Below are positions 1 through 43,939 of a stretch of 64,000 nucleotides of DNA, piece after piece. The stretch's first letter is position 1; every line of letters starts with the position of its first letter. Made by a program: the position numbers and the translations under genes. The stretch lies in assembly GCA_977017645.1 (NCBI GenBank), contig OZ360219.1, positions 153,574,001-153,638,000 on the forward strand. Direction: 5' to 3'. The notes under the pieces are model-generated. The model was not told the origin of the DNA, searched no databases, and saw nothing but the letters and a program-made list of their open reading frames with translations. This stretch comes from Torpedo marmorata. Taxonomy: Eukaryota.

Positions 1-367
1 GCCACGATGGCAGGGGAGCAGGGAAATTGGTCAATCCTTGATATGCCAGTAAAAATTTGGCCCAGCTGCTAACATGAATCCAGGCTGGAGATGTGTTTTG
101 TATTCCCAAGAGATCCAGTCATGTTTCTTTTTGATGTGATTAATGTAGCAGATTTGGGATTAGCTGGGTATTTCCAGAGGACTTGGAACCCTTCAGATCC
201 AGGAGAGAGTAGATTTTCTGGAGTTTGTGTGGGGGCACCTGCATTGTCAATGCTCAATAGCTACAATGATGCTTGGTACTTTGTATCTGTACATTTTGAT
301 CTAAATTATGAGATTGTTGTTTTGTATTCAATATTGTATCCAGTAAATTAAGGTTCTTGTTTTATAG

Positions 368-459
368 TGTGCATTGTGTTAAAGATTCCTATCCTCCGGA
401 GCTACTTGAAGCTTGGGACAAGTATAATCAAATCAAGGTGTCTGAAAATGATCGTCCAG
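368..459 (+). CDS. HASPIN: Haspin kinase internal coding exon (VHCVKDSYPPELLEAWDKYNQIKVSENDRP); upstream exons lie outside the window
   Basis: tttatag| acceptor and |gtgaga donor; peptide matches the haspin motif VHCVxGSYPPxLLxAWDxYN...S(A/E)NDRPD; phase-1 end joins the exon at 5032. Confidence 0.93.
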
Positions 460-676
460 GTGAGAGCAGTAGTAGTTTGTTTCTATAGTGGTACAGAATC
501 TGTCTTTGCTCATGTACTCAAATGCTTTTTGCACACTTTAGGAACAAAAATGAATATTTCAAAACTTGGGACAGACAGATGTTGGTTACCGTATTTGACG
601 GCATACAAGACCCACTTTTTCCCCCTAAAAATTGGCTCAAAAATATCCCCTGGGTCTTATATGCAAAGTTGAAATT

Positions 677-787
677 GAGCAGGTTGCCGGCTACTCGCCC
701 AGCTTCAAGAAGCCCGCGGACGTGCTGCGGCTGTCCAGGAAGCGGGCCCGCAGCTTCGCGGGCCACCTTCCCTCGGGTGGCCCGTGA
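677..787 (+). pseudogene. DONSON: Captured DONSON-like N-terminal exon-1 fragment (EQVAGYSPSFKKPADVLRLSRKRARS...*)
   Basis: Resembles the recalled vertebrate DONSON N-terminus GYSPxF(R/K)KPxxV(V/L)RLxRKRARS; no ATG; TGA at 785-787 in a CpG context; not in the ORF track. Confidence 0.75.
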
Positions 788-1252
788 TTTCCGGAGCCAC
801 CTCCGCCGCATACTTCCCCCGGTGAGAAGGCCGACCATGGCGGCCCCCGCCAGCAGCTCAACGGCCGTGTTTGTAGTACATGCCGATGGTGCAATCGATC
901 GCAGCTCGACAGGCCGCTCGCTCACTGCCACCCGCCCCCGCGCCTTATTCAATTTGTTCGGGGGGCCGTGCTCGTCGAACAAAGGCTCAGCGTGGAGCCT
1001 GATCTCCGAGGCCTAGTGCTCCCCTCAAAGCAAGCGATCGATCATCTGCTCCCCGCGACAGTGGGCCCTGCCCGTTGCCCTGGAGACCGGCTTCTCTCCC
1101 TCCCGCCCTTGCGCACCCGCGGGTCCCGGCACGCCTGTCAATCAATCAGCGTTTGCACGATGGGGATGGAAGCGGCCTGAGCTTTGGCGTGCGGCGGGCA
1201 GGAGGACGTGTTGCTCGTGTGCGAGGAGGCCGGTGGCGGGCCACAAGCAAGC

Positions 1253-1363
1253 ATGGGTGCCTATCTGTCTCAGCCCAACATGGTGAAGAGCTCCAGTGAG
1301 CGGTGTACTGACAAATTCGGCTTCGGCGTCTCGGCCATGCAAGGCTGGAGGGTTTCCATCGAG
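1253..1363 (+). pseudogene. PPM1G: Captured PPM1G-like first coding exon (MGAYLSQPNMVKSSSERCTDKFGFGVSAMQGWRVSIE) with intact splice donor
   Basis: MGAYLSQPN and SAMQGWRVSxE are the PPM1G/PP2C-gamma N-terminal signature; ends GAG|gtgagt; preceded by a GC-rich UTR-like stretch; no further PP2C exons seen in the window. Confidence 0.88.
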
Positions 1364-1399
1364 GTGAGTGAAGGCACACACATGCGCGTTATCTGCAAG

Positions 1400-1432
1400 G
1401 GGCCTTACAGGAGGAACCCGTTTGCCATCTTA
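1400..1432 (+). pseudogene. DONSON: Second DONSON-like fragment (GPYRRNPFAIL)
   Basis: RRNPFA recalls the conserved DONSON RRNPFA motif downstream of RKRARS; the match is short and supported mainly by context. Confidence 0.5.
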
Positions 1433-1924
1433 CCCGTAAATGCACAAAAAAAATTCTTAATATTCCCTGCTGAAATGGAGGGGATCTTATATGCCCGTGG
1501 GTCTTATATGCCGACAAATACGGTACATTTGAACTTTTTTTCAGTTATTTGTAAATTTTGTGTTTTAAAATAAATATATATATTCTGATTTCTTCATGTC
1601 CTTAATGGCATCCAACAAATACAAAGCATTGAATGTTTAATTAGCATGAATACCACTCTTTCCAAAGCAGCAGTTATTGCACCAACTATTAAAATAGAAT
1701 CATTGACACATGCACAACTTAAACAGGCCCTTTCAGCCCAACTCTTCTATTTGACTGTGATGCTTATCTAGGCTAATATTGATCTGTTGCTGTGGCAAAT
1801 ATTAATTTCCTCCTTCAGTACAGCCAGAGAGCTATAAAATAATCCAATATTGACAGGAAAATTGCCGTAGATTGTGCATCGTGGTCTGCCTTGTGAATGA
1901 CAAGACCCATCCCAATTACCAGAG

Positions 1925-3871: not shown

Positions 3872-4625
3872 TCAAGATCAAGATTCAATTTATTGTCATT
3901 GTAATAAAACAGTGTCATATTACATGAAATTGCTTTTGCCTGCTGTCAGGCAGACAGATTTGCCATCGACAGAAATTGCCTGAAGCGCCTCTCACAGTCA
4001 GAGAAAGAGAAGCAAAAGGGAGTTCCCCCAAGAATCACCGAGCGTCCGTAGATTCACCTCCAGCGCCTCCGCAGCCACACAGAGTCCAGTCCAAACCATT
4101 GGCAACCCGAGCTCCAAATCCGAACCTCCGACACGGTCAGGAACCCTTCAGCGCCCTCTGCACCCCCTCGCATCCGGTTCCGATACCTGGTACTCCCGAC
4201 AGCAGTCTCCAGCAGCCCACAGCCTCCGTGTGTTCCTCGCCTCGAGTCGTCAGCAGCCCACCGCATGCATGGGTCTTTCAGCCGCAGAGCCCCCTCACTG
4301 GTCTGCCGCTGTGGTCACTGTCCCGTGGGTCGTCTCCACTGCTTCTCCTTCTCAGACGTGGGATGGTCTCACCGTTTTCTGGTGCCCTGCGCCAGTCCTC
4401 CACTTCCCTGGAGTCTGCAACCCCTTGTGGCTGCTGCTGATCATAGGTGCCGCCATCTTGGGCGCAGACCCCACGGTCGCGGGATTTTAAATAAAACCAC
4501 CGTCGTCTCCTTCAAAGTCTGTGCGGAGCCAACAGCAGTTGACTGGGCGATTGGACCCCGCGGGAGCGCTGTATCTCCGCGACAGCGCTGCTGTTACAGC
4601 GGCTCCGGCAGTGCTGCTATTTTCT
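3872..4625 (-). mobile_element. Non-autonomous GC-rich retroposon with (TCTTGA)n tail
   Basis: Homologous to 50375-51355, 56139-56929 and 61028-61885; GACAATAAA plus (TCTTGA)n 3' end; no conserved ORF. Confidence 0.75.
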
Positions 4626-5031
4626 TCGTATTTTCTCATCGGCTATGCTACCATTGGTTTTAACTTAAAATCTTTGTCAGGTAAATAATTGCTGTCTGCG
4701 GTACAGTTTATTTTACAAGTCAATCCAAGCAAAGTATTGGTGAAAAAAATTGTATCAAAATAAACAATTTTTTAAAAAGCATTTTGAAGGAATATAAAAT
4801 GGATATGGTTGGAGGCAAAAACAGCAGAGAAGGATTTTTCAATTTCTACCTCAATAACTTAATAATATCAAGGATTTAATCTGTTTAAATAAACTTCTCA
4901 ATGATTGATTTCAAGTTTAACAGTTATTTTTGGAGTTAAAATTATTCAGTGGTTAAAATTATTTCCTATTTTTCCAAGATAATTGAAAGTTCTTAACATT
5001 GTATAGGTAAAACATATTTTCTCTTTACTAG

Positions 5032-5111
5032 ATGAATTACAGAATGAGCAACTTTACATCATTTTTGTATTTGAATATGGTGGTTGTGATCTAGAAAGTA
5101 TGAAAACAAAG
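5032..5111 (+). CDS. HASPIN: Haspin coding exon (DELQNEQLYIIFVFEYGGCDLESMKTK, hinge region)
   Basis: ctttactag| ... AAG|gtacat; matches haspin QLFIVLEFEFGGxDLE; phase 1 to phase 0. Confidence 0.93.
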
Positions 5112-5229: not shown

Positions 5230-5318
5230 ATACCTTCCCTTGAAGAAGCAAGAAGTATACTGCATCAAGTAACTGCAGCCTTGGCTGTGGCTGAAACTTG
5301 TTTACATTTTGAGCACAG
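5230..5318 (+). CDS. HASPIN: Haspin coding exon (IPSLEEARSILHQVTAALAVAETCLHFEHR)
   Basis: cctacag| ... AG|gtaaac; matches haspin AKSILHQLTASLAVAExxLxFEHR; phase 0 to phase 2. Confidence 0.95.
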
Positions 5319-6089
5319 GTAAACGTGGGGAAGGAAGGAAGAATCTTTTTTAAACTTTTGTGAAATAAGATCCTAGCCTAAAATTGAATCCCCTTCAATA
5401 TTTTAAGGGACGTGAAGCACATTTGTGCCTTAAAGGTGTAGATTTAGCTTAGTGGCTTGACTGAGTTTTCAAAGTAAGGATATTGAGAATCACAATTAAT
5501 AAGTATGCAATTTGTCATCATATTGGTTACTGATGCAGCCTGAGGCATAGATCTATAGTAGATGTGAATTTAACAGGCAGTGCCTCAGTAAATTTCTCCC
5601 TTTTCTCAGATATTGTTTGGAGTTCATTCTCTTGAATTCTATGCACGTCTTCTCACGGGTAGTGAAGTTGTTTCTCAATAAACATTGATTCTTTTGTTGT
5701 CTTAAATGTCCATTCAAAGCTATGTGAAGTTAGGAATTTCTGAGTGAGTCCATAATATGATTATTTCTGCATTTTCCAAAATTTACCAGTAAAGGAAGTT
5801 TTAAATTGAAGTGTTAAATTAGAGGGCATGGAAGTGATGGGTGATTAGACCTTCATTTGTTTAAAATCTGATCTGCAAATCTTGGATGCTCAAGTTTGTG
5901 AACGGTGATTGGAGGACTTTGCCAGTTTAGCCAATATGGAATTAGAGGTGAGTGAACACTAATGTAAACACTAATGATGATATGTAGGATATCGAGTCAG
6001 ATGTTGAGCTTTAACTACAGATTACCAAGAAATACAGATGAAAAATCGAAGACTTTTGTTGAGCTCTGCAATGGCCATAATTTGAACGG

Positions 6090-6363
6090 TGCACAACAGA
6101 CATGCAACTCCATTCCACATCTAAACAGTGAAAGAGCAAGATTTGTATCTAAATATCCACAGCACTTTTGATTAGAAGACATAAAATAATGATCATAAAA
6201 ACAAGTTGATTTTGATCCTCCTAATCCAGTCGGAGGATCAAAATCAACTTGTTTTTATGATCATTATTTTATGTCTTCTAATCAAAAGTGCTGTGGATAT
6301 TCAGATACAAATCTTGCTCTTTCACTGTTTAGATGTGGAATGGAGTTGCATGTCTGTTGTGCA
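6090..6363. repeat. Long near-perfect inverted repeat (foldback)
   Basis: 132-bp arms (6090-6221 and 6232-6363) with one mismatch seen; 10-nt loop TAATCCAGTC. Confidence 0.92.
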
Positions 6364-6392
6364 GTCTGCCTTAATTTCAATGTACCTAAATA

Positions 6393-6868
6393 CAGGTGCT
6401 CCCGTACTTACGATTTTTCAAAGTTACGATGGTTCGAATCCGTACTTTCAATTTAGAATTCCGATCTGTTCCTGCGCTTGCGATATGCGGTACACTACTC
6501 TCTTACAATGCTGGGTGATGGCAGCATCGCGCGAGAGTATCATATAGCATACTCTCACGCGATGCTGACTCAACCACGCTCGCAGTCTCTGTAGCGATCA
6601 CGCGAACGAGTGAAATTTATGACCCTGTCGCTTTAGCATCCCCACCATCCTCACCATCCAGCAATTAATTTTAGTTCAATGCTTCAAACATTCTTCATGC
6701 CCAGTGTGCTTTCAGCTGTGTACGTTAATGGTTTTTTCAGTGTGGAATAAAGGTATTCAAAATTTAATTATAAAATATGGAAGGTGCGGTATTCTTTTTC
6801 GACACGATTTTTTCGACTTACGATGGGTTTGCCAGAACGTAACCCCATCGTAAGTTGAGGAGCACCTG
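6393..6868. mobile_element. Tigger/pogo-like MITE
   Basis: TIRs CAGGTGCTCC...ACTTACGAT at both ends, TA duplication (6391-6392, 6869-6870), internal hairpin at about 6522-6567. Confidence 0.85.
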
Positions 6869-7610: not shown

Positions 7611-7964
7611 CTTTCTTGTAAAATAAAATTGTTTCTTTGACATTGGAATTGGCTCTGTTGGGGGGGGGGCAGTGGTGGGAGGGGAGGTGAGGAGGAGAGG
7701 CTGTTTATTACTAACATTGAGTTGAACTACACATTATTCCATTAGAAGCTCTTGACATTCCAAATCTGAGCAACAGATTTGGGGCAAAAAGTACCTGTCC
7801 TTTTGTATTACTATTTGTAGAAATTGTTGTTAGGAAAATTCTTGATTCTGCATTGTATTGTGCTTTCTTGCAAGGACCCACCTCAAGAATTTTGGACCTA
7901 TAGTATATTTTTAAAAGCTCCAATTGCTTTTAGATATTAATTGAATTGTTTGAATTCATTTTAG

Positions 7965-8107
7965 AGACCTACACTGGGGTAACGTTCTTGTCAAGAAAAC
8001 TGGCGTCAAACAAGTTGAATACAAGTTGTGTGGGGATACTTTCAAAATTAACACCCATGGATATACAGCTCATATTATTGATTATACCCTATCAAGAATG
8101 GGTAAAG
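7965..8107 (+). CDS. HASPIN: Haspin coding exon with catalytic loop and DYT motif (DLHWGNVLVKK...IIDYTLSRMGK)
   Basis: ttttag| ... AAAG|gtcagt; completes HRDLHWGN and carries the haspin-specific DYT in place of DFG; phase 2 to phase 1. Confidence 0.96.
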
Positions 8108-11030
8108 GTCAGTAATGTTAAAATATATGCTGAAAAAGCTGCCTGTGTGACTATTTTGATTTTAAATAGAGGTGTTTCTGTTAATCAATGAGACATGCAG
8201 TTTTTTTTCCACTTCATCATTTCACTAAAACTAACAAATTTGTTTCTGAGTCTCAGAAGGGAAGGAGAGAGAGAGCGATAGTGATCGGGGCTTCATTGGT
8301 GAGAAGAACAGATAGGTGATTCTGTGAAAAGGATTGAGACACGGATGGTATGTTGCCTTCCAAGGGCCAGGATTAGAGATGTCTGATCAGTCCGTAGCAT
8401 GCTTGAGTGGGAGGGAGATCAGCCAGATGTCATGGTACACGTTGGTACCAATGACATAGATAGGAAAAAGAATGAATATAAAGAGTGAATATAGGGAATT
8501 AGGAAGGAAGCTAAAAAGCAGGACCTCGAGGGTAATAGTCTCTGGATTGCTGCTTGTTCCATGTGCCATTAGGGCAAGAATAGGAAGTTATGGCAGATGA
8601 ATGTGTGGCTGGTGCAGGGGGCAGTGGTTTAGATTTGTGGATCATTGGGATCTCTTCTGGGGAAGGCATGAGCTGAAGAAATGGGACGGGTTGCACCTGA
8701 ACTGGAGAGGGACCAATATCCTTGTGGGCAGGTTTGCTGGAGCTTTTGGGGAGGGTTTAAACTAGCTTGGCAGGGGGATGAGAGCCAGAATGTTAGGTCA
8801 ATGAAAGAGCAGTTAGTGGAAACGTAGATGCAATGTCTCGTGAGACTGTGATGAAGGACAGGCAGTGGAAGGAACATAAATGGATGGGTTGAAATGTGTG
8901 TACTTTAATGTAAGAAGTATTAGGAATAAGGGTGATGAACTTAAAACATGGATCAGTACATGGAATTATGAAGTGGCTGATACAGAAACTTGGCTGATGC
9001 AAGGACAGGATAGGCTGATGCATGTTTTGGGCTTTAGATGTTTTAAAAGGGATAGGGAGGGAGATGAAAGAGAGGGGATGTGGCATTGCTAATCACGAAT
9101 AGGATCACAGCTGCAGAAAGAGAGGTCGTTGAGGAAGGATCAACAACTGAATCAGTGTGGTGGAAGTCAGAAACTGGAAGGGAGCAATCATTTTATTGGG
9201 AATAGTCTATAGGTTCCCAAAGAGCCGCCAGGCCATTGACAAGCAGATATGGAGGCAGATTTTAGAAAGGTACAAAAATAACAGGGAAATTGTTGTGGGA
9301 GACTTCAACTTCCCTAATATTGACTGGCACCTCCTAAATGCAAAAAGTTCAGATGGGGAAGAATTTGTCAGATTCATCCAAGAAGCATTCCTGACGCAGT
9401 ATGTGGACAAGCCAACTAAAGGAGAGGCCATACTGGATCTAGTACTTGGTAATGAACCTGGTCAGGTGACAGACCTCTCAGTGGGTGAGCATTTTGGAAA
9501 CAGTGACCATAACTCCCTGACCTATAGTTATGGACAAGGATAGTAGACAAAATGGAAAAGTATTTAATTGGGGAAGGTCTAATTACATTGGGATTAGGTA
9601 GAAATTTATGAGAGTAAATTGGGAACAGATGTTCTCAGGGAAATGCACAGCAGAAATGCAGAGGATGTTTAGGGACCACTTGTGTGGGGTTCAGGGCAGA
9701 TTTGTCCCACTGAGACAGGGAAAAGATGGTAGGGTAAAGGAACCATGGTGGACAAGAGAGGTGGAACAGCAAGTCAGCAAGAAGGAAGTAAATGTCAAGA
9801 AGGGCCCATGAGATTTGTATGGTAGCTAGGAAAGAACTTCAGGACGGGAGACCGAGAAGTGGGGGTGGGGGAGGGGTCACAAGAAGGCCTTGGCAAATAG
9901 GATTAAGGAAAACATTAATGTATTCTGCATGTACGTAAGGAACAGAAGGATGATGAGAGTGAGGGAAGGTCCACCTCGGGATCAAGGTAAAATGTGACTG
10001 GAGCGAGAAGAGGTCCTCAATGAATACTTTTCTTCAGTGTTCACTTATGAAAAGATGTTGGTCAATGTGAGGTCCGTGTGGTACAGGCTAATATGTCTGG
10101 AGCACGGTGAGGTTGAAAAAGAGGAAGTGCTGGATCTTTTTAAACTATTTGGATATGTGACCTGATGAGATATACCCAGGTCACTACAGGAAGCGAGGGA
10201 AGATATTGCTGGGGCATTGGAAATAATCTTTGCATCCTTCCTGGCCACAGAAGAGGTGCCAGAGGATTGGAGATTGGCAAATGTAGTTCCCTTGTTTAAG
10301 AAAGGTAATGTGGCAAATCTTGGGAATTATAGATGTGGAGGATTCTTGGAGACAGGATTTATGAATATTTAGAGAAGCACGGTCTTCTTATGGATAGTCA
10401 GGATGGCTTTGATAACCTCATGAGCCTAATTGAGTTTTTTGAGAAGGTGATGTAAGAAATTGATGAAGGTAGGGCAGTGGATGTGCTGCGTATGGATTTC
10501 AGTAAGGCGTTTGACAAGGTCCTCCAAGCTAGGCTCATTCAGAAAATCATGAGTCATGGGATCCATGGAATCTTGGATGCATGGATTAGGAATTGGCTTG
10601 GCTGCAAGTGGAAGTAAAGGGAATGTATTCTGCGTGGAGGTCAGTGACGTGTCGTTCTGTAGGGATCTGTTCTGGGACCCCACCTCTTTGTGATTTTTAT
10701 GATTGATTTGGATGAAGAAGTGGAAGGGTGGGTCAAAAAGTTTGCAGGTGACACAAAGGTTGGAGGTGTGGTAGTGTAGAAGGTTGTTGTAGGTTGTAAT
10801 GGGATTCAGACAGAATGCAGATATGGGAGTTCAATCCAGATAAGTGTGAAGTGATGCACTTTGGGTGGTCAAATGTGAGGGGGAGTATGTGGTCAATGGC
10901 AGGATTCTTAACAGAGTAGAGGAACAAAGGGATCCATAGATCCATCAAGGTTAACGCACAAATTGATAGAATGGTTAAGAAGGCATATGGTGTGCTGGTC
11001 TTCATTAGTGGAGGAATTGAATTCAAGAGC

Positions 11031-11558
11031 CGTGAGCACCTCCTCTCTGTCCGCAACCACAGCGTCCTCCTAGTAGCCAACCATTTCAATTCTGGGTCAC
11101 ACTCCCAGACTCACATGTCTGTCCATGGCCTTTTGCACCTGACCACCCGCAGATTGGAGGAACAACACCTTTTCTTCTGTCTGGGCACTCTCCAGCCAAA
11201 TGGCATTAACATTGATTTCTCTGCTTGCTCACCTTTTCTTTCCCCTCCCCCTTTCCTATCTTTCCAGTTCTCCCCTCCCTTCCTCCTTACCCACCCAGCC
11301 ATCCCTCCTCCCCCTCATTGCTGCTGTCCCCTCCCTCCCCTCATCCACCTCTCATCTCCTGCCTTTGCCAACCCCCCCTACCCTTTTGTTCGGACGCCTG
11401 CCGGCATTCTCTCATACCTTGATGAAGGCTCAAGCCCGAAACGTTGGTTATGTATTTCTACCTTTGCTACATAAAAGACACTGTTTGACCTGCTGAGTTT
11501 CTCCAGCATTTTGTGTTTTTTACTTCAACCACGGTGTCTACAGATTTTCGTGATTTAC
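11031..11558 (+). mobile_element. Penelope-like element, 5'-truncated, inserted in CR1
   Basis: EHLLSVR...VANHFNS...RRLEEQHLFFCLGTLQPNGINIDF (GIY-YIG C-terminal region); imperfect duplication agccgtgag/agacgtgag. Confidence 0.8.
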
Positions 11559-11984
11559 AGACGTGAGGTAATGTTGCAGCTCTCTAAAACTCTGGTTAGA
11601 CCACAGTTGGAGTATTATGTGCATTACAGTAAATATGTAGAAGGTTTAGAGAGGGTGCAGAAGAGATATACCAGGATGTTGCCTGGAATGGAGAGCATAG
11701 CTATGAGGCAAGGTTAACCCAGCTAGGGCTTTACCCTTTTGGAGTGACGAAGGATGAGAGGAGACTTAAAAGAAGTATATAAGATTATGAGAGGCAGAGA
11801 AATGGTGGCCAGCCAGAATCTTTTTCCCAGGGCGACAATGGCAAGTACCAGAGGACATCTGTTTAAGGTGAGTGGAGGAAAGTTCTGGGGAGATGTCAGA
11901 GGTGAGTTTTTTTCTACATAGTGCAGTGGGTGCCTGGAATACATTGCCAGGGATGGTGGTGGAGGCTGGTACAACAGGGAAATT

Positions 11985-14018
11985 ACCTTTGGCAGAATTA
12001 GTTAGAAAATATCCTAAAATAGTTGGTATTAAAGTTGGAATGGAAGAACATAAAATTAGTTTATTTGCAGATGATGTATTGATATATATGACAAAATCTA
12101 CTACATCCTTAGTACAATTGTCTGTGTTATTGAGAGAATATGGGGAAATATCTGGATATAAAATTAATTCTGATAAAAGTGAAATTATGGCATTATCACA
12201 AGGGGATTATAGTAGATGTAAAGAAATTACACAATTTAAGTGGGCAAAGGAAGGAATTAAATATTTGGGAATAAGGGTTGATACAAAATTGGCTAATTTA
12301 TACAAATTAAATTGTTTACCATTATTTGTGAAAATAAAGAAAGATTTAGAAAATTGGAAAGATTTACCTATAACTTTAATGGGAAGAGTAAATTGTATTA
12401 AAATGAATGTTTTTCCAAGAATTCAATATCTTTTTCAATCAATTCCTTATGGAATTCCTCAAAAATTTTTTAAAGATTTAAATTCAATTATTAGAAAATT
12501 TTTATGGAAAGGAAAGTTAGCAAGAGTAGGTATGGAAAAATTAACTTGGAATTATGAAATGGGTGGTTTACAACTTCCTAATTTCCAAAATTATTATAAA
12601 GCAGCTCAACTAAAATTTGTTAATGAATTTTTTGATTCAACTAAATCTTCTGCTTGGATTAAAATAGAATTAAATAATATAGGAGAAGATTCCAAAGAAG
12701 AAATTATTTATAAATGGGATTCTAAATTAATATCAACAAGGAAGAAAAATTCGCCTATTTTTAAACATTTGTTAGAAATATGGAATAAGACGGATAAGGA
12801 AATAGGAGGAAAAGGATTGATTTCTTCAAGGATGCCTTTATATCAAAATGGACTTATTCCATTTACTATTAATAATCAATTATTTAAAATTTGGTTTCAA
12901 AAAGGAATTAAGAAAATTAATGATTGTTTTGAAGCTGGAAAATTTATTTCTTTTCAAAGAATGAAAGATAAATTTAATATATTAGATAATACACTTTTTG
13001 CTTATTATCAAATTAGAGCTTTTCTGATTGAGAAATTAGGTTATGCTTTGATTTTACCAAGACAGAATGAATTAGAATTATTAGTTACTAAAGGAGATGT
13101 CAATAAATTTATTTCTCAAATGTTTAAATTGTTTCAGAGGAAAATGCCTAAAGTAGGAATTCATAAATCAAGATTAAAATGGGAATTAGATTTGAATGTA
13201 AGAATAGATGAAAATCATTGGAAAGAATTATGTAAATTAAGTATGACGAAGATTATTAATGTTAGATATAGATTAGTACAATACAATTTTTTTCATCAAT
13301 TATATTTAACACCTAAAAAACTAAAGAAATTTAATCCGACATTATCAGGTTTATGTTTTAGATGTAATAAAGAGGAAGGGTCTTTTGTACATTCTACATA
13401 GTTTTGTCCAAAAGTTTATGATTTTTGGCTGAAAGTTAAAAAATTTTTAGATAAAGTATTTAAGATTACATTTCCAATGGATCCTATGATATTTTTGTTT
13501 GGAGATATTAGATAATTTAGTATTAAGATGAAATTAAATATGTATCAAATAGAATTTTTGCGAATTGCTTTAGCTGTTTCAAAGAAATGTATTGCTATTA
13601 CTTGGAAATCTGAATTAGATTTAGGATTAGAAAGATGGCATGCAGAACTTCGTTCGTGTATACCACTTGAAAAAATTACTTATAATTTACGTAACAAATA
13701 TCATTTTTTCTTAAAAATTTGGAGCCCATATATGAAAGTTGTTGGTTTAAGGATTTGAAGATCTCTGGATATCGGATCTACTGGCATACCTGACCTCCAC
13801 AATAGAATTAGTTTATAGATTGGCATTCTCCTTACTCTATTTTTTTCTTTCTTTTCTCTTCTTCCTTTTCTATTTTTATTTTCTATTTTTATTTTTATTA
13901 GATTAGTGGGGAGGGGGGGTGAAAATGTATCACAAATAATTTGATAATTTTATATTTTATTTTATGTATTTTGTGATTTAAAAATTTTAAATAAAATATT
14001 TAAAAAAAACTTTAAAAA
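11985..14018 (+). mobile_element. 5'-truncated AT-rich L1 (ORF2 RT and C-terminal CCHC region)
   Basis: SLFADD RT motif, YLGI, CxxC...H; A-rich tail; 12-bp TSD AACAGGGAAATT (11973-11984, 14019-14030); stop at 13399-13401. Confidence 0.93.
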
Positions 14019-21134: not shown

Positions 21135-23235
21135 AGTCAACCTTGCAAATTAAAGACGACAACACCTCCCTTCTGGACAGACTGAACATCTTCTGTGCAT
21201 GGAACAGGATGATGCCGAAGAAAGCTCCGTGTCCCCCTGCATAGCTGCAGCTGAGGTGCAGAGAACCCTATCCAAGGTGAACTCATGCAAGGCAGTGGGA
21301 CCGGAACTTCGTTCGTGTATTCCTTTGGAGAAGATTACTTACAATTTACGCAATAAATATAATTCTTTTTTAAAAATTTGGAGCCCATATATGAGAGCTA
21401 TGGGTTTAAGGATTTGAAATCTCTAGAAATCAGGTCTATTGGCGAGTTTAACCTCCAGGATAAAATTAGTTTTTAGGTGGTTCTCTCCTCACTATTGATC
21501 TATTTTTCTTTTTGTTTTTTTACTATGTATTTTTTTAAATTTTTTTTATTATTATTTTTTTTTAGAATAGTGGGGTTGGGGGGGTTAGGGAAGGGTGGGA
21601 GGGTGTGGGGGGAGGAAATTTATATCACTTGTATTTTGGAAACTACGTATTTTGATTTGTGTACTGTGATTTAAAAATTTAAATAAAATAAAAAATAAAA
21701 AAAAAGGCAGTGGGACCAGACAACATACCTGGTTGTGTACTGAAGGACTGCGCAGCCCAATTGACAGAGGTCTTTATGGACATCTTCAACACCTCACTGC
21801 AGCAGTCCATTGTTCCTGTGGGTTTCAAGACAGCCACCATCATCCCAGTACCAAACATGGCGACAATAAAGGCCTCAATGACTACTGCCCTGTGGCACTG
21901 ACCTCCACCATTATGAAATGCTTCGAGTATCTGGTAATGGCATGCATCAAAGCATATCTCCCAGAGACGCTGGACCCATTTCAATTCGCCTATACAAGAA
22001 CTCGTTCCACTGATACTGTAGCCTTGTCCCTCCACTCTGTCCTGACCCACCTGGAGAATGACGCCTCATATGCTAGGCTATTATTTATCGACTTCAGCTT
22101 GGCGTTTAATATGATCATTCCCAGAGGCTGGTGGAGAAGCTGTCCTCGCTGGGACCCAACACCCCTTTCTGTAACGATTCTGTACTTCCTGGCAGAAAGA
22201 CCACAGTCTGTCTGGGTTGGTGGCAGGACGTCGAGCACTGTCACGCTCAGCACAGGCACACCACAGGGCTGTGTACTCAGCCTGCTCCTGTGCACGCTAT
22301 TGACCCACGACTGCATCACCAGATCCAGCTCTAACAGAGTCATCAGGTTTGCAGATGACAACAGTAGTTGTCCTCATCAGCAACAACGTTGAGTCACACT
22401 TCAGAGAAGGGGAGGAAAATCTCGTGATATGGTGCGAGAATAACAACCTGAATCTCAACATGGACAAGACGAAGGAGATGATCGTGGACTTCAAGAGGAC
22501 CAGGAACGCCCACCCTCCACTACACATCAACAACTATGTCGTGGAGAGCACCAAGTTCCTTGGAGTCCACTTAACAAGTGACCTATCATGGACACACATC
22601 TCCTCACTTGTCAGGAAGGCACAACAGTGACTGCACTTCCTGAGAAGACTGAAGCAGGCAAGGCTACTGGCCACCATCATGTCAACCTTCTACGTGAGCT
22701 CTAGAAAGAGCGTCCTGGCCAGCTGCATCACAGTGTGGTATGGTTGCTGTAGAGAATTGGATCATAGGTCAATCCTCAGGACCATAAGAGTGGCAGAGAG
22801 CATCACTGGGGTCTCCATTCCACCTCCCCACACCCCCCCCCCATTGACGTATGTACCGGGATCGTTGTCTGAAGAGGGCGCGCAAAATAGTTGAGTACCC
22901 CTACCACCCCGCACACTGTATCTATCAACTACACCTGTCGGGAAAGAGATACAGGAGTATCAGAGCCAGCACCATCAGACTGAGAAACAGCTTCTTCCCA
23001 CGGGGAGTGAGAATGCTGAACGAGTAGAGGAACTGGCCACATTGACCATCTGAGACCCTAATCCTTACTAAACAATATTTATTTAATATATCTATATTTG
23101 TCCAGTAATATCTATTGTTTGTCTGTATGTGTGTTATGTCTGGTTGTGTTTTTCCATGTTTTGCACCGAGGGGGACGCTGTTTCGTCAGGTTGTATGTAC
23201 TTGTGCAATCGGATGATAATAAACTTGAACTTTGA
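21135..23235 (+). mobile_element. Rex1/Babar LINE RT region, degenerate, interrupted by L1
   Basis: GPDNIPG, LNDYxPVALTS, LDPFQFAY, LLFIDFSxAFN, GTPQGCVLS, FADD; (CTTGAA)n tail. Confidence 0.88.
21303..21703 (+). mobile_element. Short L1 3' end inserted in Rex1
   Basis: ELRSCIPLEKITYNLR..., polyA; 14-bp TSD AAGGCAGTGGGACC (21289-21302, 21704-21717). Confidence 0.9.
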
Positions 23236-29314: not shown

Positions 29315-32300
29315 TGTGGCGGCCCGCCACTGCGGAGATCGAGCCAGCACATCACGCGGCGCGCACGGTAGTAAACAGCGGCGTAACGCGACCCTAAGTA
29401 TAGCAAACCGGTGCGGTTGAAAGCTGGAGCAGTACAAGACCAGCAGCCCTAAAATGGTGCTGGCCAAGCTGCCCAGTTAACAGATCAATATCAGGCTGGG
29501 GAAGAAGGGTATTCATATGTAAGAACGTTCCCGCCCACTATTGTTATTCATGCGGCTGATGTCAACCAATCAACTCAAATGGCGGGAACTCCAACTGTAT
29601 AAAAGAAGCATTTCCAGCCTCAATAAACCAGAGAGCTTAACCTTCCACACTGCGTGTGTGCGTTTCTTCGTAGCAGTCGGCTACAATTGGTGACCCCGAC
29701 GGTTTAAACGGCATCTAAACCCAGCGATGGATAGCAAAGCAGCGATCAGCGCAGTCGGCCTCAAGCTCCCGACCTTCTGGACAGTTCGACCAGGCTGAGG
29801 CTCAGTTCCAGATTCGGGGCATCACAGCTGAGACCACACGGTACTACCATGTGGTCAGCACCCTGGATCCAGAGACTGCAGACAGGGTGGCCAACTTCAT
29901 CCAGAGGCCACCATTGGAAGGCCATTACACTGTCTTCAAAGAGCTATAGACTGAGACCTTCGGGCTCTCGCGGCGAGAGAGGGGCACGGCTGCTCCACCT
30001 GGATGGGCTAGGGGACAGATCCCTGTCAGCGCTCATGAACGAGTTGCTAGCCCTCCTGGGAGACCACGAGCCCTGCGTCATGTTCGAGCAGGCGTTCTTG
30101 GAGCAGCTGCCCGAGGACATCCAACTGCTCCTGGCTGACGCGGATTTCAGCGACTCCCAGAAAGTCGCAGCATGGGCAGATATTCTGTGGAAGTAGAAAC
30201 AGAAGTGCTCGGCTACCGTGGGGCTCCTCACGAAGTCTTGCAACCCGGCCCTGGAAAGGAGCGGCAGGCAAGAGGCAGGGACGAGTCCAAGGAGAGATGG
30301 TGCTTCTACCACCAAAGATGGGGCTCCGAGGCCCGCCGATGCCGGTCGCCCTGCGAGTTCCAGGGAAACGACAAGGCCAGCCGTCGCTGATGGCCACGGT
30401 GGCTGGCCATCGAGAGAGCCTCCTGTACGTATGGGATCGCCTTTCTGGTAGACGATTCTTGGTGGATACAGGAGTGGAGATCAGCGTGATGCCCCCGACA
30501 GGTTTGGACACTAGATGCAGGCAAGCGGGCCCCACGTTGAGGGCTGCCAACAACAGCAGCATACGGACCTATGGCAAGTGTAGGGCCGAGCTGCAGTTCG
30601 GAGGCAGTCACTTCTCGTGGGAGTTCATGCTGGCCGCAGTGGAACAGCCACTCCTTGGAGCGGACTTCCTGTGGGCCCACAGCCTCCTAGTGGACCTCAA
30701 GGGCAAGAGACTCGTGCACGCGGAAACGTTCCAAACCTTCGCACTGAGGGGCGCCAGGCTCCCGGCACTGCACCTGGACTTCGTCCACAGCTTGGATGAT
30801 GAGTTCTCCAAAGCGCTGGCCGAGTTCCCGGCAATCCTTTCCCCTCAGTTCATGGTGGAGGTGCCCCGACACGGCGTCAGGCATTCCATCCTTACCAAGG
30901 GTCAACCTCTCCACGCAAGGGCGAGACAACTTCCCCCGGAGAAGCTTCAACTGGCCAAGGAGGAGTTCTGGAAGCTCGAGGAGTTAGGCATCGTTTGGCA
31001 GTTGGACAGTCCATGGGCTTCTCCCCTGCACATGGTGCCCAAAGCATCTGGGGGCTGGAGACTGTGCGGCGACTACAGCCGGCTTAACGAGGCCACCACT
31101 CCAGATCTTTACCCCGTACCGCATATCCAGGACTTTGCGGAAAACCTGCACGGAGCGACGATCTTCTCCAAAGTGGATGATGCGAGGGTACCACCAAATC
31201 GCGGTGCACCCTGACGACGTCCCCAAGATGGCCATCATCACTTCATTTGGGATGTTCGAGTTCCTGAGGATGCCATTCGGGTTAAGAACGCGGCACAGAC
31301 CTTCCAGCAACTGATGGACGCGGTGGGCCGAGACCTGGATGGCACCTTCGTCTACTTAGACGATATCCTGGTGGTGAGCAGAACCCGGCAGGAACATCTA
31401 CAACACTCCGAAGCCTCTACAGTTGCCTACGTGAGTTCGGCCTTACTATCAACTTGGCTAAATGCCAGTTCGGGCTGAGCACGATTGACTTCCTGGGCCA
31501 CAGGATTACCAAATGCGGGGCCACGCCACTACCCAGCAAGGTGGAGGCTATCCACAACTTCCTGAGGCCCAGTATGACCAAAGGACTGCAGGAGTTCGTG
31601 GGGATGGTCAACTTTTATTGCAGATTCATCCCCGCAGCTGCTCGAACTATTCGCCCACTCTTCACCCTGATGACCGGCAAGGCGAAGGACTTGACCTGGG
31701 ACGATGACTCAGCACGAGCGTTCGTAGAAGCAAAGGAAGCCCTGGCTTATGCCGCACTCCGGCCCACCCCAGGTTAGACGCACCCACAGCCCTCACGGTC
31801 GATGCCTCAGGAACGGCGATTGGTGAGTTCTGGAGCAGCAGATAGAAGGAAGTTGGCGTCCACTAGCTTTCTTCAGCAAATATCTGCGGCCCCCTGAGCT
31901 AAAGTACAGTGCTTTTGACAGAGAGCTACTGGCGCTGTACTTAGCCATCCGCCACTTCTGGTACTTCCTAGAGGGAAGGGCTTTCACAGACCACAAGCCA
32001 TTGATGTTCGCCCTGGCCAAGATCTTCGATCCCTGGTCAGCCCGCCAGCAGAGACACTTGTCTTACGTCTCGGAGTACACCACCGACGTAAGGCACATCT
32101 CGGGAAAAGACAACGTGGTCGCGGACGCCTTGTCAAAACAGAGCATCCACTCTCTGGCTAACGGACTGGATTTCGTGGCACTAGCGGAGGCACAGCAGCA
32201 GGATGACGAGATGCCTCAGTACTGGACCGCCGTCACAGGGCTGCAGCTTCAGGACATCCCAGTCAGCATAGGTAACACTACCCTCCTGTGCGACGTGGCC

Positions 32301-33805
32301 ACCGGGCAGTTCGACCTATCGTCCCAATGGCATGGAGGCGACGAGTTTTCGACTCCATCCACGGGCTGGCACATCCATCAATCAGGACCACGGACTGGTT
32401 GGTGGCCAGCAAGTACGCGTGGCATGGATTGTGGAAACAAGTCAACGGGTGGGCCAAGACATGCACACAGTGCCAAACAGCCAAGGTACAGCGGCAAACC
32501 AAGGTCCCCCCGCAGCCTTTCGAGACAACAGAGCGAAGGTTTGACCACATTCACGTGGACATAGTTGGACCCTTACCAGTCTCACAGGGTTTCCGCTGCC
32601 TGTTCACAGTGGTCGACCGTTTCACTCGGTGGTCAGGAGCAATCCCCCTGGCCGACACATCCACCAGGTCCTGCGCCAAGGCACTCGTCTCGTCCTGGGT
32701 AGCAAGTTTCAGGCTACCACGCCACATAACCTCCGACAGAGGCGCACAATTAACCTCCAGCCTGTGGACCGACGTTGCCAACCTGTGGGGCGCCCAGCTA
32801 CACCACACGACAGCATACCACCCGCAGTCTAACGGGCTGGTTGAGCGCTTCCACAGGCACCTCAAGGCCGCCTTTATTACCAGACTCAAGGGCCCCAACT
32901 GGGTTGACGAACTGCCATGGGCACTGCTGGGGATTTGTACAGCCCCGAAGGAAGACTTCCACACATTCTCCGCCGAGCTCGTCTACGGAGCTCCACTCAA
33001 GGTCCCCGGGGATTTCGTCCCAACGGCCAGAGGTCAACAGGAGGATACAAACACCTTCCTGGACAGGCTGCGGGAAAAGGTCGGTAACCTGGCTCCGATC
33101 CCACCCTCCAGACACGGGCAAGCCAAGTTCAACATCCCTAAATAACTCCAAGACTGTGAGTATGTGTTCGTACGCAGAGGGCCACACTGTCCACTGCTGC
33201 AGAAGCCCTACGAAGGCCCCTTCCGAGTCGTCCGTAACAACGGGGCCACCTTCGAACTGGACATCGGTGGCAAACCAGAGGTCTTCACTGCAAGCCGGCA
33301 CACACGGACCTGACACAACCCGTGGAGACGCCAGCACCTCGGCGCAGAGGCAGACCACCAAAGACATTGGGGACTGCATCCACGGACACTATGAACTGTA
33401 GCACCGGTTCTGGGGGGGGGTGGTCATGTGGCAGCCCGCAACCGCAGAGATCAAGCCGTCACATCGCGCGGCGCGCACGGTAGTAAACAGCGGCATAACA
33501 CACTGTAACACGACCCTTAGCATAGCGAACCGGTGCGGTTGAAAGCTGGAGCATTACAAGACCAGCAGCCCTAAAATGATGCTGGCCAAGCTGCCCAGCT
33601 AACAGATCAATACCAGGCTGGGGAAGGAGGGTATTCATATGCAAGAACGTTCCTGCCCGCTATTGTTATTCATGCAGCTGATGTCAACCAATCAACTCAA
33701 ATGGCGGGAACTCCAACTGTATAAAAGAAGCATTTCCAGCATCAATAAACCAGAGAGCTTAACCTTCCACACTGCGTGTGTGTTTCTTCGTAGCAGTCGG
33801 CTACA
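29315..33805 (+). mobile_element. Full-length degenerate Gypsy LTR retrotransposon (gag-PR-RT-RH-IN)
   Basis: LTRs 29315-29685 and 33427-33805; TSD GCCC; tRNA-Trp PBS TGGTGACCCCGAC; G-run PPT; gag KLPTFW; PR LVDTG; RT YLDD; RH NVVADALS; IN HHCC, SDRG, NGLVER; several frameshifts. Confidence 0.96.
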
Positions 33806-36040: not shown

Positions 36041-37393
36041 CAGAATCAGAATTTATTGTCATGAACAAGTCATGAAATTCGGTGTTTTGCGGCAGCATCA
36101 TAGTGCAATTAACATTCATATTAACCATCTAACGACATTACTATAAAAATTATAAACAATAGTGCACAAAAAGTAAGGTAGTGTCTTTGGTTCATTGATT
36201 ATTCAGGAATCTGATGGCAGCGGGGAAGAAGCTGTCCTTGTGCCGTTGAGTTCTCATCTTAAGGCTCCTGTACCTTTTCCCCGATGGAAACAGAATGAAG
36301 AGGGCATGGCCTGGGTGGTGGGGGTCCTTGAGGATAGAGGCTGCTTTTTTAAGACACCGCCTCATGTAGATGTCCTCGATGGAGTGAAGTTTGGTGCCTG
36401 TGATGTCACAGGCTGAGTTAACAACCTTCTGGAGTTTACTTTTGTCCTGGGAGTTGGCGCCGCCATACCAGGCAGTGATGCAACCAGCCAGAATGCTCTC
36501 CACGGTACACCTGTAGAAGTTTACGAGAGTCTTTGGTGACATACCGAATCTCCGCAAACACCTCACAAAGTATAGCCGCTGACGAGCCTTCTTTGTGATT
36601 GCATCCACGTGGATGCTCCAGGACAGATCCTCGGAGATGTTGACACCCAGGAATTTGAAGTTCTTGACCCTCTCCACTACTGAGTCCTCGATGAGGACTG
36701 GGTCGTGTTCCCCTGACTTCCTCCAGAAGTCACAATCATCTCCTTGGTTTTGCTGACGTTGAGCTCAAGGTTGTTGTCATTACACCATTCAACGAGCTGA
36801 TCTATCTCCCTCCTGTACGCTTCCTCATTGCCGTTTGTGATTCTGCCGACAACTGTGGTGTCATCGGCAAACTTGTATATGGCATTGGAATTGTGCCTGG
36901 CCACACAGTCATGAGTGTATAACGAGTAGAGCAGTGGACTAAGCACGCATCCTTGGGGTGCGCCTGTGTTGATAATCAGTGAGGAGGAGACGTTGATTCC
37001 AATTTGTACTGACTGTGGTCTTCCGATGAGAAAGTCAAGGATCCAGTTGCAGAGGGGGGTACCGAGGCCTAGAGTTTGTAGCTTCTTGACCAGTACTGAG
37101 GGAATAATGGTATTGAAGGCCGAGCTGTAGTCGATGAAGAGCAACCGTATGTATGAATTGCTGTTTTCGAGGTGATCCAGAGCTGAGTGGAGAGCCAGCG
37201 ATATTGCATCTGCTCTGGAGCGATTGTGGCGATAGGCGAATTGCAGTGGGTCCAGATCTTTGCTTAGGTACCGGTATGTGTTAATTCTGGCCATGACCAG
37301 CCTCTCAAAGCATTTCATCACAGTAGAAGTTAGTGCTACTGGGCAGTAATCGTTGAGGCAGCTCACACTACTCTTCTTGGGTACCGGGATGAT
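36041..37393 (-). mobile_element. Young Rex1/Babar LINE, 5'-truncated, in the Gmr1 5' LTR
   Basis: ORFs 36677-37366 and 36192-36677 form RT plus C-terminus with one frameshift; (GATTCT)n tail; LTR sequence resumes on both sides. Confidence 0.92.
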
Positions 37394-38077
37394 TAATTTA
37401 AAGTTAAGTTATAGAATTATATATCTTAGTAAGGTTAGTTGTGGGCTGGTACAGGGTCACACACAGGTCACAGCACATTTGCAGAGAAAAAAACATTACT
37501 CAGAGAGAGTTCAGTTTGGAATCGAAGCGTCTATGAAAGACAAAAGCCATAAAAACTGAAGTGGTTTTTAAAAGCCTTATGATAGCAGCTGTTGCAAACT
37601 CAAGTGCCATTTGAGTGACATATGCCAGACTATTTGGAGTCGTAATCACTTATAATATTGGAACAGAGATAAGGTCAAATGTTTTGTGGATGTAAGTGAT
37701 TTTGAAGAAAGGCATGAGATAATGCTTTCAAAAATGACTAAAACTGTGGTGATGTAATGTCACATGATGTCAGAAATATATAATGAAACCAGAGAGACAT
37801 TTTGAAACAGATTGAACCAGACTGCACCAGACTGAAGAAACTCTGACACTTTGGAAGGACAAAGAAAAAATCTGAAGAACTTTGATATTCTGGAAAGGCA
37901 GAATCATTTTATGAACAGTGATCTCTAAGTGAATGGAGGTGCTGTTTCTGTGTATTATCCTTATCATAGGAGATACACCATATAAGTGGCTTTTAAAATA
38001 AGTAAGACCACTTTCAAATTGTTTCTAAGAAAAGAGAACATCACCATATGTTACTCCTGATCAAGAAAGAAATCATC

Positions 38078-40515: not shown

Positions 40516-43500
40516 ATTGCAATTTAAAAGGGATCCTGAAGTTCAACAAAAGAAGTTGGAAACTGGACTTTAAAAATTGACTTTTTCAGATTTAAGTTTA
40601 AGCTGAAATGGTTTGGACTTTAACACACACACATTTACATTTGCGCATAGTGGGGTTTAAGTTAGAGTTAAGTTAAGAGATAAGTAAGATATGTTATTAA
40701 TAGTTTAAATAAAAAAAATATTTTTGAATTTACCATTGTCTGGTGAATCTTCCATTGCTGTTCCTTTGTTAGTACTAGCAAGGTTTGTTAGTTCGTAACA
40801 AAATTGGGGGCTCGTTCGCGATTTAACCAAATAATTTTTGAAAGTCAATTAAAAGGCTTATTGTGTGTGTGTAAACAAAACAGCATCAATGGGTTTTGAT
40901 AAATGTTTGGTCACACCAAGTGGTGTATATTTGAAAGTGGAGGAGACTTGGTCAAAGTCTGCAAATATTGCAGATGATTATGTTTTAAACCCCAAAACTA
41001 AGTGTGGGCCAAGTGAAACTTTCCAAGTGAGACTTGATAAGCTTTAGGAATGGCGAAGCTCTTCAGAGTTGCAGATGGTTGAGAATGAGGTGGTAAAACA
41101 ATTTACTGAGAATAAATCTCTTAAGCAGCAGGTACAGATTGAGTTAGAGAGACGTAGAATGGAGATTGAACTACGTAGAATGGAGATTGAACTACGTATA
41201 AAGGAGATGGAGTTAGAAAAATATAGAATTATGAAAGATAGAGAGGAAGCAGGAAAACAAAGAGAGGAAGCAGAACAGCAAAGGAGATTTGAGGCAGAAG
41301 AAGCTGAAAGGCAGAGGCAGTTTGAGCTAGAATTAGAAAAACTTAGAGCTGAGGAAGCCCAAAGGAAATGGGAGTTTGAAGATAGAAGGAGAGAAGCAGA
41401 AAAAAAACGGAGGTTTGAAATAGAAATGAGAGAAATGGAAACTTGGTCAGATTTTGCAGAATTTGCAAATGAGTATGATTTAAATCCAGATCTTAAATTA
41501 AAGCCGTGGAACTTTTAAAAAGGGGCAAAATTCTGCTACATTTGCAGATGAGGATCACAATGTGAAATTTGTGCCCAAAATACCTTTTCAAAAGGGTAAC
41601 ATGAAGTACCAAAATAAGGTAAAACCTTTTGGTTTATTTTGTGACTATTGTAAGAAACATGGTCATGTGGTAGAGAATTGTTTTTTCTTGAAGAGAAATA
41701 GAGAACAGAAAACAGTGCGAGATGCTTGTATTCAAGGAGATGAAAACCAGGGAAATAAAGAAGGGATTGTTGGTAAAATTAGGAAGGAATGTAAATCTTT
41801 TGTGTCAGGAGGTAAGGTTGTTCCTGCAGTAAAGTATCCAATTAAGTTTGAAGCTGAATGGGGAATTGTAGCCAGCAAAGAAAAGGCTGAGCAAACTGGG
41901 TTAAACGTTATGTCTAAAAACTTTGCCAGTGAAGAAAATACTGGACAGATTGATTTAAAAGACACACAAGCTTGTGAAATTAAAAAACAGGCACAAGAAG
42001 AAGCAGGTTGTGGTGACTCATCGGTCACTGTGAATGTTTCTTTGTTACACCAGAGATCTAGAATTGAGCTCGAAAGTAGTGACTGTGCACAGCAGATGAA
42101 AGAGGATTTGTCTTTATCCAGAGCAAAGTTAATAGAGAAACAGAATAAAGAAATTGATCTTGCTGAAGTGAGAGAAAAAGTACTATCTGCTGAAGAAATT
42201 AAGACCGTGCCAGTTGGTTACTATTTAAAAGAAGGAATATTAATGAGAGCATGGAGGTCACTTGAGATTCCTGCTCATGAAGAATGGGCAGTTGTTCATC
42301 AGGTTGTGGTTCCTAAAGATTATAGGGATGAGATTTTAAAACTAGCCCATAGCACACCTTTAGGTAGACATCTTGGGGTAAAGAAAACTACCGGTACCTA
42401 TAAAATTATGAAACAATTTTATTGGCCTAATTTAAGAAAAGATGTTAAGAGATTTTGTAGGACCTGTCACACTTGTCAGGTTGTGGGGAAGCCTAATCAA
42501 AGTCCCACAGTGGCACCTTTAAAACCTATTCCAGTTTTTGGGGAATCTTTTTCTAAAGTTATTGTGGATTGTGTTGGTCCATTGCCCAAAACAAAAGCTG
42601 GAAATGAATATTTATTGACCATTATGTGTGTAGCTTCCAGGTTTCCTGAAGCAATACCACTTAAGAATATTAAAGCAGAAACTGTGTATGGGGCTTTGGT
42701 GAAATGTTTCACTTCATTTGGTTTGTCTAAAGAGATACAATCAGATCAGGGAAGTAATTTCATGTCAGGTGTATTTCAACGGTTAGTTAATAAATTGGGA
42801 TCTAAACAAATTACATCATCTGCATATCACACAGAATCTCAGAGAGCTTTGGAGAGATTCCATTCGACTTTAAAAACTATGATGAGGACTTATTGTTTAG
42901 AGAATGAGAAGGATTGGGATGAAGGTGTTCATTTACTTTTATTTGCAGTAAGGGAAACAATACAATAATTGTTAGGCTTTAGTCATTTTGAGTTAGTGTT
43001 TGGACATGAGGTCAGGGGACCTTTAATGTTGTTGAAAGAACAGTGGGTTAATGAGGATGTGCAGTTGAATTTGTTAGAGTATGTTTCAAAGTTCATTTAC
43101 AGAAGGTCTGTAAGATAGCTAAGGAGAATTTAAAAGTGGCTCAAGGTGATATGAAGGTTTGGTATGACGGAAAAGCAAGAGAGAGAATTTTAAACCAGGG
43201 GATAAGGTGTTAATTCTTTTTCCAACAATTTCTAATCCTTTTAGAGCAAAATTTTCAGGAACTTATGAAATAGAATCTAAGGTAAATGAAGTTAATTATG
43301 TGGTTAAAACTCCTGATAGGAGACGTAAAACACAGAGTTGCCACGTTAACATGTTAAAACTTTATTTGGAGAATATGGATGTTAGCTAGAAGCAGCCTTC
43401 ACTAGAGGTATTGGTTGTGGAGAAAACGGAGGTTATGGATCATGAAACTATACAAGCTAATTTTTGTGAGAGTCATTTTAAAGAGAATATTGTTCCAGTT

Positions 43501-43888
43501 TGTTTGCCTAATTCAAGTGTATTGGAAAATTTGGATGAGAATTTGGCTCATTTGAAACCTCAGGAAAAGGAACAAATAAGACAGTTGATTTTAAAATCCA
43601 GAAATTTATTTCTGGATGTGCCACAGAGAGCATGCCACAATGTTGATGTTGGAGATGCAAATCCTATCAAACAGCATCCATACAGAATGAATATTGAAAA
43701 ATGTAAACAGGTAGATCAAGAGATTGAGTACATGTTAAAGAATGATATTATTAGACGTTCTACTTCAGATTGGAGTTCACCTTGTGTACTGGTACCTAAA
43801 TCAGATGGGACAGTTAGATTTTGCACTGATTATAGAAAAGTTAATGCAGTGACAAAGACAGATGCTTATCCTATCCCTAGGGTAGATG

Positions 43889-43939
43889 TAAAAAACACAA
43901 ATGCTGGAGAAACTCAGCAGGTCAAACAGTGTCTTTTAT
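43889..43939 (-). mobile_element. 51-bp Penelope terminal fragment inserted in frame in the Gmr1 RT
   Basis: AAAAAACACAAATGCTGGAGAAACTCAGCAGGTCAAACAGTGTCTTTTAT is the reverse complement of the Penelope terminus; 9-bp duplication GGGT(A/G)GATG. Confidence 0.85.

Follow-up and report, generated by a model that had tools for sequence, protein, structure and literature searches.

A pogo-type transposon family of Torpedo marmorata carrying a PPM1G gene start nested in a DONSON gene start

The window, i.e., the whole stretch of 64,000 nucleotides of Torpedo marmorata DNA that was analyzed (contig OZ360219.1, here C1, positions 153,574,001 to 153,638,000), contains Haspin, split into several exons (363-460, 5032-5111, 5230-5319 and ~7960-8110). 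The exon at 363..460 (forward strand, start approximate) matches human haspin with an E-value of 4e-9 and ends at a phase-1 donor at 461, the next exon at 5032..5111 (forward strand) has a phase-1 acceptor, and the exon after it matches the Pfam family Haspin_kinase. In sense orientation and 128 bp 3' of the upstream exon lies an element (589-1523) with a GC content of 60% and a CpG observed/expected ratio of 0.89, compared with 38% and 0.19 in its flanks. Inverted-arm comparison identified terminal inverted repeats (TIRs) of 27 bp at 589..615 (forward strand, also recovered by the family count) and 1497..1523 (reverse strand), bordered by the two copies of a TA target-site duplication at 587..588 and 1524..1525; including the TA, the arms 587-615 and 1497-1525 comprise 29 nt and are 93% complementary. 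The left element end, composed of TIR and subterminal DNA (589..675), and the right element end (1429..1523), both on the forward strand, match a transposase-coding partner at 80% and 78%, and the left end type is common to the DONSON-only and X-cargo subfamilies described below. An initial annotation of this stretch had proposed a Haspin intron as host, a GC- and CpG-rich island in AT-rich surroundings and a non-autonomous mariner/pogo-type element with a TA duplication, all of which is borne out by the flanking exons, the base composition, the TIRs and the pogo-type partner; its TIR length of 26 bp is to be corrected to 27 bp.

The insertion is shared by organism A, a relative, in which contig X1 covers window positions 250-620, with 32 letters inside the element and 12 differences. 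Contig X2 covers 1504-1949 with only 20 letters inside the element, which is below the bridging rule and suggestive only. An empty orthologous TA site in the Haspin intron was seen in none of four sequencing runs. The same intron holds a second GC-rich stretch (60-65%) at 3928-4660 with open frames without Pfam match. Elsewhere in the window an inverted duplication is found at 6015-6590, with similar reading frames on both strands, and retroelement remnants were recognized by Pfam endonuclease, reverse transcriptase and integrase domains at 9151-13401, 21670-22392, 32276-33145, 36677-37408, 41502-44583, and 57169-59363.

The interior of the element is made up of pieces of two genes. DONSON exon 1, nucleotides +8 to +194 from the ATG, which itself is lost, occupies 676..861 (forward strand, 92% to G000:C43:42.158 Mb) and resumes at 1408..1428 (forward strand, ~+201 to +221 by alignment to the gene, encoding RRNPFA), with 4 DONSON bases missing at the site of PPM1G insertion. 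The DNA at 850-1406 corresponds to PPM1G -632 to +155 at ~85%, with an inversion at 902-1043 and two of the three upstream repeats missing. By alignment to the gene it consists of upstream DNA (850..902, forward strand, ~-632 to -581 from the ATG), upstream DNA inverted relative to the gene (902..1043, reverse strand, -590 to -436), upstream and 5' UTR DNA with a single unit of a 105-bp repeat of which the gene has three (1046..1252, forward strand), coding exon 1 with 37 codons, intact ATG and phase 0 (1253..1363, forward strand, supported by protein and gene match), and the splice donor with 43 bp of intron 1 (1364..1406, forward strand). Parent comparison showed that the left DONSON/PPM1G junction (850..861, forward strand) is a 12-nt near-match common to both parents. 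No other site of this kind was found within 1,300 bp of PPM1G 5' DNA; the exact parental overlap is only 2 nt at each PPM1G junction. Pfam gave no match for the two short window peptides, which were identified by PDB and protein searches: the DONSON peptide matches a PDB DONSON chain (E 9e-7) and shows 79% identity to ray DONSON, and the PPM1G peptide is 86-92% identical to four shark and ray PPM1G proteins, in line with a cartilaginous-fish origin of this 6.2-Gb genome. The three peptides of the initial annotation read as given there, and its assignment of them to the N-termini of DONSON and PPM1G holds; what it overlooked is that 850-1252 is PPM1G upstream and 5' UTR DNA as well and that 902-1043 is inverted.

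Comparison of the interior with the genome identified the true parent loci at the identities given above. Native PPM1G exon 1 is located at C11:25,157,996-25,158,112 with its own later exons across the next 115 kb, so that the exon in the window is not the native one, and native DONSON exon 1 is located at C43:42,157,994 with later exons up to 42,183,293. The family TIR is absent from 8 kb around exon 1 of both native genes, which sets the element copies apart from segmental duplications. Parents on C43 and C11, together with the retained donor, intron and upstream DNA, agree with the earlier proposal of DNA-level capture from unlinked loci. The DONSON gene has changed after the capture, since it now contains a 3-base insertion that is missing from the element copies and lacks a codon that the copies retain and that is present in the ray protein. 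On another contig, at G000:C45:51309079-51309282 (L033), the last coding exon of PPM1G (aa 504-571, 78%) is present as a further copy.

About 60 dispersed chimeric copies are present in the genome, and a search with the initial 27 bases of this PPM1G exon gave 61 matches with at most 3 mismatches, the gene itself counted. Among 34 chimeric copies examined, which were chosen because they resembled the window element or PPM1G, the right end is present in all 34 and both ends in 24, and 21 of these 24 full-length copies, distributed over many contigs, are flanked by TA on both sides. The right PPM1G junction is common to 34/34 chimeras and the left one to 20/24, and the element/DONSON junctions are shared by 24/24 and 32/34. 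As the junctions are shared among the chimeras, they point to one capture that was spread by transposition. Two copies are parent-like intermediates, as L048 keeps three and L045 two of the promoter repeats. The 142-bp arm occurs in both orientations in 16 of the 24 full-length chimeras, only forward in 2 and only inverted in 6; the window copy belongs to the last group, its segment 902..1043 being the remaining arm of the hairpin found in the 16 sister copies. A related TA-flanked element end with a similar but distinct TIR adjoins chimeric copies at L013:662 and L023:1326.

The genome also contains elements that carry DONSON DNA only. Locus L062 is undeleted and reaches from the DONSON 5' UTR to +560, including ~245 bp of intron, a form with an internal deletion gave 97 exact junction matches, and a shorter form with the right junction of the chimera and an intact insertion site gave 138 matches. 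Of these 138 precursor-type loci 72 were read, three of which hold another cargo, and the remainder includes 62 full-length copies. The left junction of the chimera is also found in 44 of the 62, and the right junction, which equals the search pattern, was present in 72/72 together with an intact site including the 4 bases missing from the chimera. Since it holds these 4 bases, the DONSON-only form is the precursor rather than a product of deletion, and the order of capture, DONSON and then PPM1G, is thereby shown, as the initial annotation had suggested by placing PPM1G-derived DNA inside an already captured DONSON exon. This order rests on structure and not on a clock, because the subfamilies, which were sorted by diagnostic columns (common segment of 100-180 bp, 3-4% divergence), are all of similar age (2.2-4% divergence). 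In 49/62 full-length DONSON-only copies an 82-bp DONSON unit, the end of which coincides with the PPM1G entry point, is repeated in tandem, indicating that this site broke or slipped repeatedly. Loci L173 and L174 (C25, 69 kb apart) are near-identical precursor copies with the same flanks and represent a segmental duplication, not two insertions.

A transposase-coding partner with the same TIRs was found in L093, a locus picked by hand for its length, which contains a 1,649-bp element with a frameshifted open reading frame. This frame has the domains BrkDBD (E 2e-4, just below the cut-off), HTH_Tnp_Tc5 and DDE_1 (both above it), and 40 related loci scored 83-94%. Four further partner loci were read, all with both TIRs, and all five copies read are broken, so that an intact transposase was not among them. 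The partner elements are 1.65-1.69 kb long, and the open frame of L305 shows a catalytic spacing of 35 residues (DD35D). Passer elements are described with a TA duplication, TIRs below 30 bp, a length of 1.6-4 kb, the domains BrkDBD, HTH_Tnp_Tc5 and DDE_1, and DD35D (PMC7386202; PMC9976928), and the partner fits them in duplication, TIR and length. Judged by domains, DD35D, TA, TIR and length, the element in the window appears to be a non-autonomous member of the pogo (Passer) family. It would have been mobilized in trans by the partner transposase, which rests on the shared ends as 5/5 transposase copies are broken; the autonomous partner that the initial annotation had asked for was thus found as a transposase-coding element with the same TIRs, though only in broken copies. 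Many DDE_1 matches with identical scores in frames of 494-495 aa were observed on small contigs including C146, C318, C923, C1031, C1135, and C1625, which suggests a young, possibly active pogo-type family.

The TA plus TIR pattern has 2,998 exact matches, and 17,021 when up to 3 mismatches are allowed (reversed control: 0), the latter number corresponding to ~8,500 elements; the TIRs, whose occurrence elsewhere had been named as a check, are found thousands of times in the genome. On C1, 67 consecutive elements were selected only by an exact TIR, with two duplicate ends dropped and L093 excluded: 61 are of a derived form, one is a precursor and five carry a GC-rich cargo, X. Two of the 61, L113 and L114, possibly belong to a single copy that was interrupted. 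Parts of both genes are kept in the derived form, namely DONSON DNA (+23 or +62 to +163) and the PPM1G hairpin with 5' UTR to -43, together with a low-complexity expansion; its hairpin has a turning point identical to that of the chimera, and the PPM1G coding exon is present in 0/61 copies. A search with the hairpin center gave 6,372 derived-form matches, and 56/61 sampled copies matched once; a fair estimate of the copy number is ~7,000, and at least 6,372. The ends are of the partner type in 54/56 (left) and 55/56 (right) derived copies, in contrast to the other end type of chimera and precursor, and in 13/61 the transposase start codon reads in frame into DONSON. The derived hairpin folds at -132 to -142 kcal/mol versus ~-53 for shuffles, whereas the window copy and the gene fold no better than shuffles. 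We infer that the end swap may have caused the burst.

The three precursor-type loci with another cargo (3/72) hold a first exon with donor that matches Pfam tRNA_Me_trans (E 1e-5), a family known as TRMU in animals. This TRMU-like sister subfamily has at least 40 copies; 30/30 copies read have the family end and 20/30 contain DONSON DNA as well (cargo loci L171, L176, L205, and L235-L264). The parent exon, L269:2705-3172, was found via Pfam, is not among the 30 cargo loci read, and is located at C57:32,793,104-32,793,571. Further exons of the tRNA_Me_trans family follow 17 kb farther on, and the TIR of the transposon family is absent from 33 kb at this locus. The TRMU-like cargo keeps ~90 bp of intron 1, and all three identified cargoes consist of upstream DNA, first exon, donor and some intron, a 5'-end bias that is subject to ascertainment, as only cargo with coding similarity could be named. 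TRMU-only copies have a 113-bp AT-rich tail (L248:1388-1500) with at least 40 matches, among which its source was not found. Cargo X is GC-rich and internally palindromic (L091, L106, L125, L131, and L271-L300) and is present in 27/30 loci with its left end. This end type gave 773 exact matches, and its first 50-60 bases are common to the longer DONSON-only forms. A search for the X parent with an exclusion pattern gave 64 matches, mostly element variants, two of which were read, neither being a parent. Further shared AT-rich inserts were observed in X variants (L109, L275, L276, L282, L288, L289, and L291), which are possibly more captures or nested elements.

The initial annotation had also seen in the element a mobile exon-shuffling cassette, and a cargo selected as exon-shuffling or promoter unit, e.g., as a new first exon of Haspin, would be in line with several observations. 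The window copy lies sense in the Haspin intron and has retained the PPM1G upstream DNA as well as an intact ATG and donor; in the 31 of 34 chimeras with an ungapped PPM1G exon the ATG is kept in 27 and the donor in 29; the PPM1G part of the window copy has lost little CpG (2/26 CpG sites versus 8/166 others); and 56/56 full-length derived copies still reach CpG-island thresholds. Against this stand 44 synonymous, 85 non-synonymous and three new stop changes in these 31 exons, i.e., a synonymous share of 0.33 against 0.34 expected under a rough neutral model, by which the captured exon appears to evolve neutrally. Furthermore, the phase-0 PPM1G donor is out of frame with the phase-1 acceptor of the next Haspin exon, and the large derived subfamily has lost the exon. 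Across all subfamilies divergence from the column majority is 2.2-4% at non-CpG and 10-17% at CpG sites, a decay that is 3-6 times faster at CpG in the copies, as expected of methylated DNA, while the DONSON gene lost no CpG. A contig guessed to be RNA-derived, X10 (1,819 nt), matches window 1195-1364 and ends at the donor, as expected for the native PPM1G message but not for an element copy. We consider a selected cassette improbable; with a neutral exon, a donor out of frame and a most abundant descendant without the exon, the cargo would most likely be carried along as a neutral, methylated passenger and not as a working exon-shuffling unit.

The reading we prefer, with a probability of roughly 0.85, is that of a ~60-copy pogo/Passer element in which PPM1G is nested in captured DONSON DNA, likely formed by template switching during repair and spread by a transposase acting in trans. 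In the order shown by the surviving intermediates, a small element would have taken up the DONSON 5' UTR, exon 1 and intron, deletions would have led to the 0.4-kb DONSON-only form, and PPM1G -632 to +155 would then have entered at the 12-nt near-homology with removal of 4 bases. Subsequently two of the three promoter repeats would have been lost, and the hairpin, of which the window copy kept the inverted arm only, would have arisen by inverted duplication; finally, the cargo without the PPM1G coding exon would have acquired the ends of the transposase-coding element, followed by a burst to more than 6,300 copies. Both captures would have occurred when a broken element was repaired with template switching, as suggested by the microhomologies at the junctions; the founding copy and the break that started the capture cannot be located. 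Entry of the gene pieces as RNA, by retroposition of PPM1G or DONSON transcripts, could be considered because the three identified cargoes are 5' ends of genes that are likely broadly expressed, as inferred from their known roles. It is very improbable, given that donor and intron 1 DNA are retained in PPM1G (43 bp), DONSON (L062) and the TRMU-like cargo, that the PPM1G piece reaches 632 bp upstream of the ATG, and that no exon 2, poly(A) or LINE-type duplication is found in the copies. Still less probable is that an ordinary rearrangement first joined DONSON and PPM1G and that both were then taken up together, with the DONSON-only copies as deletion products: no support for it was found in the best 40 candidate loci scored, the DONSON-only copies hold the 4 parent bases missing from the chimera, and they include longer forms up to +560 besides the deleted one with its 97 matches.

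As in animal Pack-TIRs (Tan et al., 2021, PMC8277862), to which the element belongs by its biological features, TIR ends of one family enclose host DNA of DNA-level origin with an identifiable, TIR-free parent, short microhomology and target-site duplications (here TA) at distinct sites; the multicopy cases in that survey also spread by transposition and favor GC-rich DNA, and TcMar elements are among the carriers. The survey cut-off of 90% identity and 80-120% length relative to one parent is not reached by the element as a whole (DONSON 92%, PPM1G 85% and rearranged), a cut-off that is a search filter for young cases and not a biological feature; a pipeline with 90% identity and a unique best hit would likely miss such a family. 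According to the accessible text of the survey, 370 cases were found in 100 genomes, of which four were multicopy in reference genomes and none was from elephant shark, the frog multicopy examples had 3 and 5 copies, and a nested two-gene capture is not described, in contrast to the three parent genes, nested capture and 60 to >6,300 copies observed here. Bat Helitrons are likewise vertebrate elements that capture sequentially and with a bias for promoter, 5' UTR, first exon and first intron and that have been amplified, with about a thousand copies for HelibatN3/NUBPL and a combined 4,690 for 15 promoters (Thomas et al., 2014, PMC4224331); however, they are rolling-circle elements described without TIRs or target duplication, while the present family is cut-and-paste with DD35D, TIRs and TA, and one two-gene lineage alone has more than 6,300 copies. 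Rice Pack-MULEs are TIR elements that also duplicate GC-rich DNA of broadly expressed, open-chromatin genes into GC-poorer places, but their ~3,000 elements are reported with more than 1,500 different cargoes (PMC5861414), whereas here few cargoes are massively amplified. Pack-MULEs are characterized as plant Mutator elements with long TIRs and a 9-10 bp duplication (PMC8277862), and the 27-bp TIR and TA of the present element speak against membership. In its behavior the family is closest to bat Helitrons and rice Pack-MULEs, belonging to neither. The Passer descriptions, in their accessible parts, mention neither gene capture nor cartilaginous fish (PMC7386202; PMC9976928). In the literature searched no transposon with DONSON and PPM1G, no shark DNA transposon or MITE capturing gene fragments, and no animal TIR element whose capture was amplified to thousands of copies as in plant and bat elements was found, in line with the initial annotation, which knew of no described family like this; an unannotated consensus may exist in Repbase or Dfam.

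Animal TIR gene capture was reported to be rare and nearly always single-copy in the survey text available (PMC8277862), and here three gene starts were captured, one of them nested, with one chimera being the dominant MITE of the family and accounting for ~6 Mb of sequence that is still above CpG-island thresholds. As a more speculative possibility, to which we assign a low probability, the Passer lineage could be a serial promoter thief with a preference for CpG-island gene starts (3/3 cargoes), in which the combination of hairpin promoter DNA and autonomous ends drove a hundredfold outgrowth and thousands of ectopic PPM1G and DONSON promoter pieces serve as promoters or give rise to hairpin-derived small RNAs controlling the parent genes. 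The intermediates left in the genome constitute a rare stepwise record of the formation of Pack elements, a process called perplexing in the same survey (PMC8277862, as far as its accessible text goes), and MULEs and Helitrons are joined by a third kind of element with the same 5'-end bias. For annotation this is a warning, since in genomes of this kind transposons carry as cargo dozens of "first exons" of DONSON, PPM1G and TRMU-like type. The family allows a direct test of whether the cargo or the end sequence decides on the success of a MITE.
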